NCBI GenBank assembly: GCA_051652765.1
Contig: JBOFUV010000068.1
Span: forward strand, 1 to 33,429
From: Microcoleaceae cyanobacterium
GTDB lineage: Bacteria; Cyanobacteriota; Cyanobacteriia; Cyanobacteriales; Microcoleaceae
Reading direction: 5' to 3'
Length of the DNA stretch: 33,429 bases
A program made the translations under genes and the position numbers. The notes under the pieces are model-generated. The model did not search any database, had not been told where the DNA came from, and was given only the letters and a program-made list of their open reading frames with translations. Numbering within the stretch: the first letter of the stretch is position 1; each line of letters starts with the position of its first letter. This document shows positions 1 to 30,712 of the stretch, in pieces.

Positions 1-45
1 TTCAGTCTAAAATCTTCACAATTCGATGCTAAGCCGAAAAAACCT

Positions 46-218
46 GGATAACCTGCGGAAATATACGGAAATTTCCCATCTAATCCGCTGTTCTGGGTGG
101 ATTAGACTGCGAATTTCAGCCTAATCCGCTTAAAGTGTGCGTTAGACTGAAAAAGTCAGCCTAACATACTCAAATAGTGCGATTAGACTGAAAATTTCAA
201 CCTAATAACTAGTTATGC
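46..218 (+). other. Putative long attC-like recombination site enclosing the palindrome array
   Basis: GGATAAC (46-52, R''-like) and GTTATGC (212-218, R'-like) bracket the array. GTTATGC matches 6/7 the complement of the R'' ACATAAC of the downstream attC. Confidence 0.45.
60..206. repeat. Array of four 25-bp imperfect palindromes with 40-41-bp period
   Basis: ATTAGACTGCGAATTTCAGCCTAAT (101-125), GTTAGACTGAAAAAGTCAGCCTAAC (141-165), ATTAGACTGAAAATTTCAACCTAAT (182-206), degenerate AATATACGGAAATTTCCCATCTAAT (60-84). Spacers are 15-16 bp. A right half-unit TTCAGTCTAA is at 1-10. Confidence 0.85.
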
Positions 219-373
219 CGCTAAGTCCTGGGTAAGGGCATAGCCGAGAGTTTTTCTGTTCGTGCTAAAAGTTAAGGCTGAAATATTTCAAGTTAAGCAC
301 CCTGTTTAGGTTCTACAGGATAAACTGTTTACAGTGTTGATGCTGACTACTAATCAGGAGCTTTGCAGTTTGA

Positions 374-1540
374 ATGATCGACTTGCAACTTGAGAAAATC
401 CAAACCCACTACTGTGAGATTTGCAATGGCTGGTTAGAGTTTTGCTTTGATAGACATGCCGTAACATTTGAAGGCGTAAATCTATCCTTGTCAAATATTC
501 CTCTTTTGCGTTGTGATAGCTGTGCTAGATACTATTTTACGGAGAAAACAAAAGCAATAATACTAACTGTTAGTGAGCAAGCAAAAGAGCAAGGAAAGCC
601 GGAGGTAAAGTTGTCTCCTCGACAAGACTTTAAAAGACGCTTTAGTTATGGACAGGTCGAGTTTTTATATGACTATAGAGACTACGAAAACATCCCTGGA
701 TTGCAGAGACCTTGGGATGATGGTTTTTTGACTCCAGTTTTCTTTAACCTTGCGGTTTTAAACAAATACTCTCAACATCCTGATTATCGCCTGGATTTAT
801 TCTCTAAAACTTATGGAAGTATAGACAACAAAGATGAGTTTGATATTTCTTTCGGTATTAATAGAAATCGGAAAGTGATCATGTGGCTGGGTGATATTGA
901 TAAATTGCCACTAAATGAACAGCATTATCTCAGATCTGAAAACGTAGAATCTGATCATGATTTATGCTCGGAGTTTTATGAATCACAAATAGAAGTGCAG
1001 TTCTCAAACCCCTCTCCTGAAAATGCTTTGTTCCATGCTAGATCAGAAGCTGTTCAGGCTTGTCAAAGAAATCGAGGAGGATACCTTCATACATTTGAAG
1101 GAGAAATAAGTAAAGTCATTGAGAATCTTGACCGACCAGTATTTTGGCAAGAAAAGCATGTCAATCCGGTCATAGAGGCTCTTAACCGAGTTATGGTTGA
1201 AAGCCTAGATTCGCAGTTTCTCAAAAATGAACTTAAAGATGTAATCAGTAAAGATGAACTCAAGGGGCTTAGATCTCTAAAACTCTTTGAAAGGTGGTTG
1301 GAAAGGGTTCTTAATCTATCTAGTTTTTCAGATGTATCACTTCCATTCTATGTACTGTACGATTTTCGTATTTTGAGTTCTCATCTAACTTCAGAGTCTA
1401 AAAAGCAAGAAACTCTTAAAAGCATCAATCAAAGGCTTAATTTGCCAGAGAAAAATGAAAATAATGAGGTGATCTATGAGGCGCTAATTAATAGACTGCG
1501 AGAATCATATGAAACTATTCTTGTCGAACTTCAGGCGTAA
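374..1540 (+). CDS. Hypothetical protein with N-terminal YgiT/MqsA-like zinc ribbon and C-terminal Rx4H (HEPN-like) motif; probable cassette cargo
   Basis: 388-aa ORF; C14xxC17 and C47xxC50; R332-ILSS-H337 in a helical-looking C-terminal region; AT-rich, no HIP1; AGGAG at 356-360. Confidence 0.8.
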   Translation: MIDLQLEKIQTHYCEICNGWLEFCFDRHAVTFEGVNLSLSNIPLLRCDSCARYYFTEKTKAIILTVSEQAKEQGKPEVKLSPRQDFKRRFSYGQVEFLYDYRDYENIPGLQRPWDDGFLTPVFFNLAVLNKYSQHPDYRLDLFSKTYGSIDNKDEFDISFGINRNRKVIMWLGDIDKLPLNEQHYLRSENVESDHDLCSEFYESQIEVQFSNPSPENALFHARSEAVQACQRNRGGYLHTFEGEISKVIENLDRPVFWQEKHVNPVIEALNRVMVESLDSQFLKNELKDVISKDELKGLRSLKLFERWLERVLNLSSFSDVSLPFYVLYDFRILSSHLTSESKKQETLKSINQRLNLPEKNENNEVIYEALINRLRESYETILVELQA

Positions 1541-1705: not shown

Positions 1706-1973
1706 TATAGAACCCATTTGGTATCTATCTAACCCGTAGCAAGTCTTTTGAGCATCAACCGGACAAAGCAAAGATTAACCTTGTCTGTACTTGCATTACA
1801 AGTATTTTTTTTACCACTATAGCGTCTAAGATTTATCGCTTGCTCCATTTTGGCGGTCTAGTTCTCTTCTTTTGGGGGGTTCAATAATGTCCCACTCTTT
1901 GTCTGTCAAGCCGCTTGTATACTTCATTTTTTCAGTCTTGCTTCTCTCTCTAAAATACCAAATGGGTTCTATA
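1706..1973 (-). mobile_element. Internally deleted IS5-family element (MITE-like)
   Basis: Perfect 19-bp inverted repeat TATAGAACCCATTTGGTAT (1706-1724) / ATACCAAATGGGTTCTATA (1955-1973). The outer TA or TATA may be the target duplication. Transposase remnants lie inside. Confidence 0.85.
1729..1927 (-). pseudogene. IS5-family transposase remnant (N- and C-termini only)
   Basis: MKYTSGLTDKEWDIIEP, frameshift, KRTRPPKWSKR*ILDAI, then the C-terminal ...KVNLCFVRLMLKRLATG*. The DDE core is missing. Confidence 0.8.
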
Positions 1974-13302: not shown

Positions 13303-13737
13303 GTGGAACAAATATCTGCAAAAGAGCAAACATCTGTGAAGGAACTAGCACTCGCAAAAGATCCAGTCCCCGCAAGAGAGCAAACCTTTGGAAAGCTGAT
13401 CCGTCAAGCCCGCAAAGACAAAGGCTATTCTCAGCGACAGCTTGCAGGTCTCTTACAAGTTGATTTTACATACCTTTCCAAGCTTGAGAATGACCGAGCC
13501 GATTATCCTCCCAAGGAAGATGTGATCCGGGGCCTCGGGCGCAACTTGGGGTTAGACGAAGAGGAGTTGATTTTCTTGGCAGGCAGGATTCCACAACAGT
13601 ATGAAGGATTCCTGAAGCAAAATCCTAGAGAATTAGCTGCTTTGTTCCGTCATATGGAAAATCCTAAATTTGCTAAGGAAGTGTTTGAGAAGTTTAATGG
13701 AGGAGCGCTAGAAGGAAAAGCGAGTGGGGATTCTTAG
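13303..13737 (+). CDS. XRE-family HTH transcriptional regulator
   Basis: FGKLIRQARKDKGYSQRQLAGLLQVDFTYLSKLEND; GGAGG RBS before GTG. Confidence 0.92.
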   Translation: MEQISAKEQTSVKELALAKDPVPAREQTFGKLIRQARKDKGYSQRQLAGLLQVDFTYLSKLENDRADYPPKEDVIRGLGRNLGLDEEELIFLAGRIPQQYEGFLKQNPRELAALFRHMENPKFAKEVFEKFNGGALEGKASGDS

Positions 13738-14365
13738 ACCATACGAGTTCTACCCCAAACAGTTTATTGAACGGCAAGCCAACCGACTTCTACATCAAAT
13801 GGAGGCAACGCCGTTCGCTCCAGCTTGGCCATTTGATGCGGCTTCTGTTGCTGATTTTTTGGATTTGGGGGTGGTTTGGGAAGCGATTCCACCCGATCAG
13901 GGCGGAGCGATCGCTGCCCGGATTTTGCCGACTCAGCGCATGATTGAAATCAATGAAGCGATCCTGCAACTGAAGCTAGATCCAGGGTTTATTGAGTCTA
14001 CCCTTGCCCATGAAGTCGGTCACTGGATGCTGCATATTAATCAGGATGCAGTAGATGCTGAAGTGCTTGACGAAGCGGAAGAACCTTTTGTCTGTCGAGG
14101 AACTACGGATGAAACCAAGGTTGCCTCAATGGAATGGCAAGCTCAATACTTTGCGAGCTGTCTCTTGATGCCCCGTTGGGTTTTGGATCAAAAGTTCAGC
14201 AATCGTAGTTTTACAAATTGGTCTCATTTGTATGAGGTCAAAGATGAATTGGGAGTAACGATTTCCAATCTACTCCACCGCTTGCGGGACTTGGAGTGGA
14301 TTAGTCGCGATCAAAAAACTCGAAAGCTTGGTCAAGGGCAGCTTAGAGCGAATCGTTCGACCTAG
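13724..14365 (+). CDS. ImmA/IrrE family zinc metallopeptidase
   Basis: TLAHEVGHWMLH (HExxH) and EWQAQYFASCLLMP; overlaps the XRE gene by 14 bp. Confidence 0.92.
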   Translation: MGILRPYEFYPKQFIERQANRLLHQMEATPFAPAWPFDAASVADFLDLGVVWEAIPPDQGGAIAARILPTQRMIEINEAILQLKLDPGFIESTLAHEVGHWMLHINQDAVDAEVLDEAEEPFVCRGTTDETKVASMEWQAQYFASCLLMPRWVLDQKFSNRSFTNWSHLYEVKDELGVTISNLLHRLRDLEWISRDQKTRKLGQGQLRANRST

Positions 14366-22170: not shown

Positions 22171-22220
22171 GCCTAAAAGTAACTAGCTTAAAAGTCATTA
22201 GCCTAACAGTAACTAGCCTA
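22171..22220. repeat. 15-bp tandem repeat x3.3
   Basis: GCCTAAAAGTAACTA GCTTAAAAGTCATTA GCCTAACAGTAACTA GCCTA. Confidence 0.8.
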
Positions 22221-23979: not shown

Positions 23980-25200
23980 ATGGCTAAAAAACGCTCTCGA
24001 CTGCCCAGAATCATTGGTTTTCTTGCGGCGATTTTGACCCTTTGTGGCGCGTTGGTTTCAACCCTGTCTATTGGAACTGAGTTACAACCGTCTTCTGAAC
24101 CGTCCTCTGAACTGCGGGCAGTCTGGCTGACCAATGTTGATAGTGACGTGTTGTTTTCAACCCAAGGAATTCGAGAGGCTTTAACTCGTCTCAGTCGCTT
24201 GCACTTCAACACAATCTACCCAACAATCTGGCAAGGAGGATACACGCTTTATCCAAGCGCGATCGCCCAGAAAACCTTGGGCAAGGCCCTTGATCCGACT
24301 CCGGGCTTACAGGGGCGAGACCCGTTGAAAGAGGTGATTGAAATTGGGCATCGCCAAGGGCTGACGGTCATTCCCTGGTTTGAATTTGGGTTTATGGCTC
24401 CTGCTGATTCGGAACTAGCAAAGCGCCATCCTGACTGGTTAACCCGCCGCTTGAATGAAGCAACCGTTCAACCGGAAGGCATTCACGAACGAGTTTGGCT
24501 CAATCCGTTTCACCCCGAAGTTCAGCAATTTATTTTAGATTTGATTACTGAAGTGGTGAGCAATTACGATGTTGATGGGATTCAATTTGACGATCATTTT
24601 GGCTTGCCTGTGGAGTTTGGCTATGATCCGTTCACAATTCAGCTTTATAAAGCTGAACATGAAGGCCAATCACCCTCAGAAGAATTTTATGAAACCTATT
24701 GGATTCGATGGCGAGCAGATCAACTGAATCGTTTTATGGAACGGGTTTTTCGAGAAATTAAAGCGATTAAACCAGATTGTATTATTTCCCTCTCACCAAA
24801 TCCATTGCATTTTGCTTTACCTGCTTCTCTGCAAGATTGGTTTACCTGGGAACGTCGGGGTTGGGTCGAGGAAATTGTCTTACAAGTTTATCGTCCTGAC
24901 ATGAAGCGGTTTTTATTGGAACTAGATCGCACCGAGGTCGAACTCGCAAAGCATCATATTCCCTTTGCCATTGGCATTTTGAGTGGGTTAAGAAATGATC
25001 CAACTTCTATTGAAACCGTCACTCAACAGGTTCAGGAGGTTCGTCAACGGAAGTTTGCAGGCGTTTCCTTCTTCTTCTATGAAAGTTTGTGGAATTGGGC
25101 CAAGGAGACTCCGGCACAGCGTCAAGCAGAAATTCAAAAGATTTTTACCCAACCCGCAGCTCGGCCTGTTGGGCAAACGTTTAATTCTATTAAGCCTTGA
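23980..25200 (+). CDS. GHL10 (DUF187/YddW-like) glycoside hydrolase
   Basis: N-terminal TM/signal, ELRAVWLTN, WFEFG, WLNPFHPEVQ, YDVDGIQFDDHF. Confidence 0.9.
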   Translation: MAKKRSRLPRIIGFLAAILTLCGALVSTLSIGTELQPSSEPSSELRAVWLTNVDSDVLFSTQGIREALTRLSRLHFNTIYPTIWQGGYTLYPSAIAQKTLGKALDPTPGLQGRDPLKEVIEIGHRQGLTVIPWFEFGFMAPADSELAKRHPDWLTRRLNEATVQPEGIHERVWLNPFHPEVQQFILDLITEVVSNYDVDGIQFDDHFGLPVEFGYDPFTIQLYKAEHEGQSPSEEFYETYWIRWRADQLNRFMERVFREIKAIKPDCIISLSPNPLHFALPASLQDWFTWERRGWVEEIVLQVYRPDMKRFLLELDRTEVELAKHHIPFAIGILSGLRNDPTSIETVTQQVQEVRQRKFAGVSFFFYESLWNWAKETPAQRQAEIQKIFTQPAARPVGQTFNSIKP

Positions 25201-25250
25201 ACACCTAAGTCTTGAACACCTAAGCCTTGAACACCTAAGTCTTAAATACA
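25191..25250. repeat. 15-bp tandem repeat x4 beginning inside the gene end
   Basis: TAAG(C/T)CTTGAACACC x3 plus TAAGTCTTAAATACA. Confidence 0.9.
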
Positions 25251-30595: not shown

Positions 30596-30669
30596 CTAAC
30601 CCCTTATGAACTAGCCCCTTGTGAACTAGCCCCTTGTGAACTAACCCCTTGTGAACTAACCTCTTGCAA
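30596..30669. repeat. 15-bp tandem repeat x5
   Basis: CTA(A/G)CCCCTT(A/G)TGAA x4 plus CTAACCTCTTGCAA. Confidence 0.9.
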
Positions 30670-30712
30670 GCTGCAAACCGGATTACTTCGTTTCACTCTT
30701 CTTGGAACAATC

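Follow-up and report, generated by a model that had tools for sequence, protein, structure and literature searches.

The window is the first 33,429 nucleotides of contig C68 (C68:1-33429) in a 5.04-Mb genome (G000) assembled in 158 contigs. It begins with a regular array of palindromic units on the forward strand. Four 25-nt units are located at 60-84, 101-125, 141-165 and 182-206, with a period of 41, 40 and 41 nt and spacers of 16, 15 and 16 nt. The unit at 60-84 has a degenerate left arm and is 64% self-complementary, compared to 72-80% for the other three. The contig opens inside the unit nearest to the integron integrase gene intI. The right half of this unit is at 1-11 (forward strand), and its left half and the intI start codon are off the contig. 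The full intI-proximal unit is seen in the aligned copies in contigs C22, C45 and C34 and in the same-genus genome G002, 5-6 nt from the ATG of intI on the minus strand. A decayed unit is located at 28-52 (forward strand), and a unit homologous to it is present at other cyanobacterial loci. The original prediction gave the units correctly, with their period and spacing, and likewise the half unit and the flanking GGATAAC (46-52) and GTTATGC (212-218). The look-alike reported near 272-296 is also present (271-296), but it is located inside the first cassette, scores a weak 4.7 bits and is probably incidental.

Positions 1-218 are the intI-attI spacer of a cyanobacterial integron, because 1-215 is 83.8% identical, over 216 nt, to the DNA that begins immediately ahead of the start codon of a full-length intI in G002. 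We regard the identity of the segment as attI as practically certain. A recombinase gene was expected upstream of the array. The window's own intI is off the contig, intI adjoins the array at the orthologous locus in G002, and stubs of the 5' end of intI are found beside the copies in the window's own genome. The simple site is located at 200-218 on the forward strand. It consists of a degenerate L box (ACCTAAT, 200-206), the 5-bp spacer AACTA and an R box of the GTTRRRY type (GTTATGC) contributed by the first cassette, with the G/TT crossover between G212 and T213. The L box is the right arm of the last array unit, 182-206.

A search of the genome for the unit showed that it is multi-copy. 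There are 22 matches to the unit pattern, and all ten of those with 0-1 mismatch are in copies of the same element. A profile search gave 22 copies with a recognizable core, after three further matches without a core (C88, the second C61 locus and C48) were dropped. Column conservation among them averages 0.88 over the 20 nt before GTT, versus 0.42 over +10 to +39. GTT is present in 20 of the 22, and all 22 diverge after the crossover point. C45 has lost three units, and one of its internal arms now acts as the L box. Co-oriented cassettes follow the site, and the R'' box of their attC complements the R box. The segment thus fits attI on every feature examined, and its recombination with attC is predicted. 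A sigma-70 promoter scan of window 1-450 found no promoter.

The first gene cassette occupies 213-1649 on the forward strand and is unique in its own genome. It is shared with public sequencing runs, where it is under unrelated flanks. None of the four runs covers window 1-211. In three of the four, homology starts exactly at 212 and is preceded by foreign DNA; two of these flanks are attC-end-like and one is array-arm-like. One contig of run X6 spans 212-1652 with unrelated flanks and then departs, X1 covers 212-1626, and X20 begins at 212. The cassette is a real mobile unit. It carries a forward-strand ORF of 388 amino acids at 374-1540, with an alternative ATG start at 428, which has no match in Pfam, NCBIfam or PADLOC. 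Its look-alikes in Atlas (0.97-0.98) are hypothetical proteins of about 400 amino acids. The ORF belongs to a widespread unnamed family of ~400 amino acids with two N-terminal CxxC motifs, which is also found in glacier and other metagenome runs.

The genuine attC of the cassette is located at 1569-1655 on the forward strand and was identified by an attC profile and by its fold. It has an R'' box ACATAAC, a single bottom-strand hairpin and an R' box GTTATCT, although the z score of the hairpin fold is only -1.6. The R'' box complements the cassette's own 5' GTTATGC at six of seven positions. The partner of GTTATGC is ACATAAC at 1569 in the downstream attC, and not the GGATAAC that brackets the array with it in the original prediction; GGATAAC belongs to the right arm of the decayed unit 28-52. 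The attC profile, built from 15 heuristically found sites, has 87 matches in the genome, 45 of them with callable ends. Within 10 kb downstream of an attI are 43 of the 87, and 42 of these 43 are co-oriented. Twelve arrays have a callable first attC, and its R'' box agrees with the R box at attI at 7/7 positions six times, at 6/7 three times and at 4-5/7 three times.

The array had been proposed to be an attC-like site of an atypical integron-like cassette system. It is not an attC. It spans 173 nt and lacks a single-hairpin fold, its GGATAAC and GTTATGC ends are unpaired in the fold, the only match to the attC profile on the contig is 1569-1655, and the array precedes the cassettes and adjoins intI in orthologues. 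The length of attC is given as 57-141 bp in PMC4909258. The integron and the expanded att site stand, whereas the system is conventional. Ordinary attC sites of the genome are 83-105 nt, and the IntI of G002 scores 478 bits on the integron integrase model TIGR02249 (matches over the cut-off were found in 4 of the 41 genomes searched).

The arms of the array resemble attC boxes. We scanned the region with a nine-position matrix trained solely on attC boxes of the same genome (29 R' and 38 R''). It marks 60>, <84, 101>, <125, 141>, <165, 182>, <206 and 212>, which includes all eight arms of the array, in alternating orientation. The units at 101-125 and 141-165 each have arms of 9.6 and 10.5 bits, and the right arm of the decayed unit 28-52 has 8.3. 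In 60-206 the matrix finds eight boxes of at least 5 bits, whereas shuffled sequences average 1.4 and none of 500 has as many as eight. One of these eight is an off-phase match at 134; the arm at 60 is weak, with a score of 3.1. Since a matrix trained on attC alone finds all eight arms, these are likely to be extra IntI sites. On this resemblance, the tandem recombinase-binding array suggested in the original prediction is the likely reading.

The arms of a tyrosine recombinase core face head to head across an overlap of 6-8 bp. Within each unit of the array, the two IntI-box-like arms are arranged tail to tail relative to the true core, so that the 7-bp center of the 9-7-9 unit is not the strand-exchange overlap that it had been said to resemble. 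Arms of neighboring units face each other across 15-16 bp, versus 5 bp in the core, which would correspond to about one more helical turn. The array is thus not a tandem row of dif/lox-like core sites, and the final gap of 5 bp is the exception. Across 140 arms, the consensus is RTTAKRCNGA, in which T3, A4, G9 (138/140) and A10 (135/140) are nearly invariant. The G of GTT is not fixed (65/140). The spacers have a conserved CCC/GGG flank where the core has A/T.

We propose that the array is probably a phased row of non-cutting IntI binding sites, which would help to load IntI onto, or to gate, the single cutting site at 200-218. Each arm would bind one IntI monomer. The last arm alone has its partner on the far side of an A/T-rich gap of 5 bp and could recombine. 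The upstream head-to-head pairs, which are 15-16 bp apart, padded with C/G and without the fixed G of GTT, would be bound without being cut. Phased bound arms may then play the part of DR1 and DR2 in attI1, enhancing attI x attC insertion or filtering it topologically, but the sites number 8-14 or more. Judging from the letters of the arms, IntI is the likely binder. The enhancer or filter role is drawn by analogy with attI1, and we consider the chances for and against it to be about equal. DR1, DR2 and the L box of attI1 bind IntI1 in vitro according to PMC12901181. On a plasmid-borne class 1 integron, the arm matrix gives 8.3 bits to DR1, 7.1 to DR2 and 3.6 to the L box, although it is loose, with three further matches in the 217 nt of the class 1 spacer and the class 1 R box missed.

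One observation counts against IntI as the sole reader of the arms. Few attC boxes have A10 (9 of 38 R'' sites and 3 of 45 R' sites), whereas the arms fix G9-A10, so another protein could read them. Letters common to the arms and the L box could arise from unit duplication alone. The array could instead be recognized by a host or accessory protein distinct from IntI, as an operator or architectural element through which this protein regulates intI or shapes the attI synapse. The near-invariant TA..C.GA arms and the CCC flank exceed what attC boxes conserve, and host factors are reported to be needed for attIA recombination in Vibrio (PMC8946536). Against such a protein, 36 whole units are found inside integron platforms and three elsewhere, and one shuffled genome has four. 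Units outside platforms are thus at chance level, and a global regulator is not indicated. No gene is located between intI and attI in the loci examined, the last arm is the L box itself, and LexA is ruled out as described below. We consider an operator of this kind unlikely.

The cyanobacterial LexA operator is described as a 14-bp palindrome, RGTACNNNDGTWCB / AGTACWNWTGTACT (PMC3091678), and cyanobacterial LexA is reported to read a divergent motif (PMC3108266). The array is not a LexA operator. Its motif differs, its own genome has no detectable lexA, and LexA-like boxes are a separate motif in 10 of 27 cyanobacterial loci. At these ten loci, the box (at most two mismatches) lies ~20-27 nt away from the start codon of intI, with the array starting at a greater distance. 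At six other loci and in the own-genome copies, the first arm is at most 12 nt from the start codon and no LexA-like box is present. We did not find lexA in five genomes of the family (G000, G001, G002, G016 and G017). It was found in G036, and 27 of 30 host genomes have lexA over the cut-off. The idea that the array replaces LexA where lexA was lost is not supported. Four of the six hosts in which the array reaches the start codon have lexA, so the layout does not track lexA loss. Because the array occurs in both layouts, its main job appears to be at attI. Where it reaches the intI start codon, as in the window's lineage, it could also repress intI, and autorepression is a possible second job there. 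The LexA-like boxes belong to one IntI clade (L056-L068 and L073), and their sequence suggests SOS control of those integrons.

The palindromic units raise the question of structure. The array might work via a cruciform, via single-strand hairpins as an attC-like substrate, or via a processed small RNA. The region folds far more stably than shuffled sequences (z = -4.1 to -5.4 for the bottom strand, and none of 200 shuffled versions matches its stability), and both of the exclusive registers described in the original prediction, within units and across spacers, appear in the predicted folds. Pairing at variable positions was tested on 27 loci, which gave 92 distinct units and 92 spacers. Two of the three tests show more pairing than global shuffles. 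In the unit register, pairing clearly exceeds these shuffles (0/2000) and is borderline against within-locus shuffles (p 0.07). Against within-locus shuffles, neither the spacer register (p 0.52) nor the pairing of arms across spacers (p 0.45) shows an excess. Poorly palindromic units are common among the copies, and the array has no attC profile match. No Rfam family is near threshold among the seven matches listed, and neither this nor the pairing results support the small-RNA array that had been offered as a less likely alternative. A fixed motif that is repeated accounts best for the palindromy, and a function through secondary structure is highly improbable. CRISPR arrays have unique, acquired spacers of about 20-70 nt between identical repeats. 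Here the spacers have 15-16 nt, and they are conserved among paralogues as well as across species; there is no Rfam match, and the array is not a CRISPR.

We examined the distribution of the array at 80 intI loci from GTDB, of which 15 with less than 250 nt upstream were left out. In this sample, which is biased to the close relatives of the query and contains non-independent kin, at least two chained units were found upstream of intI at 20 of 27 cyanobacterial loci, 0 of 1 labelled Gracilibacteria, 1 of 4 from Chloroflexota and none of the 33 from other phyla, using a matrix trained on cyanobacteria. Equal-length controls inside intI contain no chained units. A motif-free test (self-match at lag 39-43, at least 35/70 identities) was positive at 23 of 27, 1 of 1, 1 of 4 and 2 of 33 loci, respectively. 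The period is 40-42 in 48 of 50 steps between chained units, and the gap is 15-16 in 48 of 50. A quick tree was built of 58 IntI rows, with two frameshifted rows dropped and labels set by us, partly by eye. It places in one clade (98% SH-aLRT) 24 loci that carry an array and a further one whose upstream region is disrupted. Arrays are also found in a second cyanobacterial IntI lineage (L025 and L029), where the arms and the L box mostly share C at position 10, compared to A in the main lineage. One named cyanobacterial plasmid has an integron with the array. At L053, labelled Candidatus Gracilibacteria, IntI and its array are nested among cyanobacteria, which may reflect misbinning or transfer. 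The complete chromosome of G016 (C1:4450106-4498212) contains three near full-length intI and several fragments within about 50 kb.

Repeated units could also be a functionless by-product of attI half-site duplication, through aberrant attI x attI events or slippage. Unit number varies among own-genome copies by the loss of whole units, the units at L068 are near-identical (69/70 matches at lag 41), and all own-genome platforms are without an intact integrase, as expected for such a by-product. However, many cyanobacterial families have kept the spacing (gap of 15-16 bp, unit of 25-26 bp) and five positions of the arm, with other positions varying freely, and the array recurs in the second IntI lineage and at one Anaerolineae locus. 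A functionless by-product is very unlikely. The array is not essential for cassette retention, since C146 and C71 keep one unit and still hold cassettes.

The closest intI relatives of the window's own genome are cyanobacterial. No intact intI was found in the assembly, which is fragmented and could contain a collapsed copy; the longest piece corresponds to residues 1-117 with a frameshift. Seven PF00589 matches are present in the genome, none of them with an integron-type C-terminal match. The opposite strand of six copies examined reads (M)EQR(P/L)KK(L/P)L(D/E)QV...HY and then a stop, and stubs of the form MEQRPKKLL... are found beside the own-genome copies, most of which have only a short piece of intI. 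A 27-amino-acid stub is too short for Pfam, and its identity comes from DNA similarity to the G002 intI and from longer stubs. The longer pieces match TIGR02249 from position 1. The G002 intI itself has one in-frame stop at residue 290. Because no intact intI was found in the assembly, the window copy is an orphan that works only if IntI comes in trans.

The heads are scattered, and some are joined to the end of an insertion sequence (IS). The same fixed truncation on the intI side is found in 14 of the 21 cores other than the window's, and in most of them it is followed by 22-bp tandem repeats. The truncated block abuts one and the same IS-like end in C45, C67 and C101, each time with a different flank. 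In C50, the opposite IS end directly follows the last attC, and the left end is truncated. The IS-like end at these platforms is the element at window 1706-1973, a MITE-like remnant with perfect 19-bp terminal inverted repeats and 15 end matches in the genome. It derives from a DDE-transposase insertion sequence, and a longer copy in C50 has weak matches to DDE_Tnp_1_2 and DDE_Tnp_1 below the cut-off. The integrase-less attI platforms at the IS-derived end are located at G000 C45:25845-26700, C67:14935-15884, C101:1-641 and C50:600-5986. They could possibly be a non-autonomous mini-integron transposon. The bracketing may be of the MITE/IMU type: the same left junction stands at three flanks, and C50 has the right end and a truncated left end, with no target duplication resolved. 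C101 ends within the stub; measured on C45, the window would begin 148 nt further on, and C101 probably continues into it. At least six heads are present in G002; their first cassettes differ, and none of the six has the 22-bp repeat. The 22-bp repeat beyond the intI stub forms 22 clusters in G000, each with 1-13 exact-pattern copies (for example C64:22249-22513 and C67:15152-15418). Clusters without a platform match are found in C63, C109, C134, C144, C145 and C22:13278.

The remnant at 1706-1973 cuts a short cassette without an ORF, the 5' part of which is located at 1650-1705 on the forward strand (16 genome matches, itself included). The complete cassette of ~210 bp is at G000 C67:15876-16085 directly after attI, and elsewhere it follows attI or attC sites. 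It is possibly a promoter or small-RNA cassette.

The attI1 site is described as 65 bp long, with an L and an R box as well as two direct repeats, DR1 and DR2 (PMC12901181, PMC3146285, PMC8946536). DR1 and DR2 are reported to favor attI x attC recombination and were proposed to be topological filters (PMC8946536). Like attI1, the window type has an L box, 5 bp and G/TTRRRY beside a divergent intI, with extra box-like sites upstream, and DR1, DR2 and the L box score on the arm matrix. Unlike attI1, it is ~200-400 bp long and has 8-14 or more arms with a fixed 40-42-bp period, the last of which is the L box. In the window, eight or more arms in alternating orientation are found in place of two direct repeats. 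Most likely, it works like attI1 with DR1/DR2 but is not of the two-direct-repeat type. The window type also resembles the attI of environmental or sedentary chromosomal integrons in being chromosomal, adjoining intI and having a canonical crossover and cassettes with ordinary attC. Those sites are described as mostly without accessory repeats (PMC3146285), and attIA as having none (PMC8946536), whereas the window type has the array.

The own-genome cassette arrays are similar to CALINs in that no intact intI is found nearby or anywhere in the assembly. They differ in keeping an intact attI head and a 5' stub of intI, with 22 heads scattered in one genome. Class 1 integrons mobilized by MITE/IMU elements, as described in PMC3575428, are likewise defective integrons joined to non-autonomous transposon ends. 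The platforms described here are cyanobacterial, intragenomic and present in many copies, and only some of them carry the end.

No description of a phased array in a cyanobacterial attI was found in the titles, abstract beginnings and passages searched, including those of bioRxiv 10.1101/2022.02.06.479319; supplementary attI alignments could hold such sites unremarked. IntegronFinder is described as searching solely for the attI of classes 1-3, with attI unknown for most integrons (PMC4889954). We tentatively suggest that the array represents an undescribed attI design, in which 8-14 or more helically phased non-cutting IntI sites would form a nucleoprotein enhancer that replaces host factors and, in one lineage, also represses intI. 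The window's own genome would then be a distributed integron with more than 20 integrase-less heads, each holding cassettes of its own and supplied with IntI in trans, and some of them spread by IS-derived ends. The array provides a recognizable attI signature for the whole phylum, and it finds heads that tools based on intI or attC would call CALINs. Work on the role of accessory IntI sites has centered on attI1 with its two repeats. The natural series found here, in which the phased units number from one to seven or more, makes this role (enhancer, topological filter or autorepressor) directly testable. Many integrase-less attI heads in one genome bear on the origin of CALINs and on the spread of cassette genes round the chromosome.

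Several other elements are found in the window and its genome. The octamer GCGATCGC, which we take to be the cyanobacterial HIP1 repeat, occurs 3,231 times in the genome. At window 13303-14365, an HTH gene overlaps an IrrE/M78 peptidase gene, presumably resembling an ImmR/ImmA-type pair. Short 15-bp tandem repeats, which are typical of filamentous cyanobacteria, are located between genes at 22171-22220, 25191-25249 and 30596-30670.
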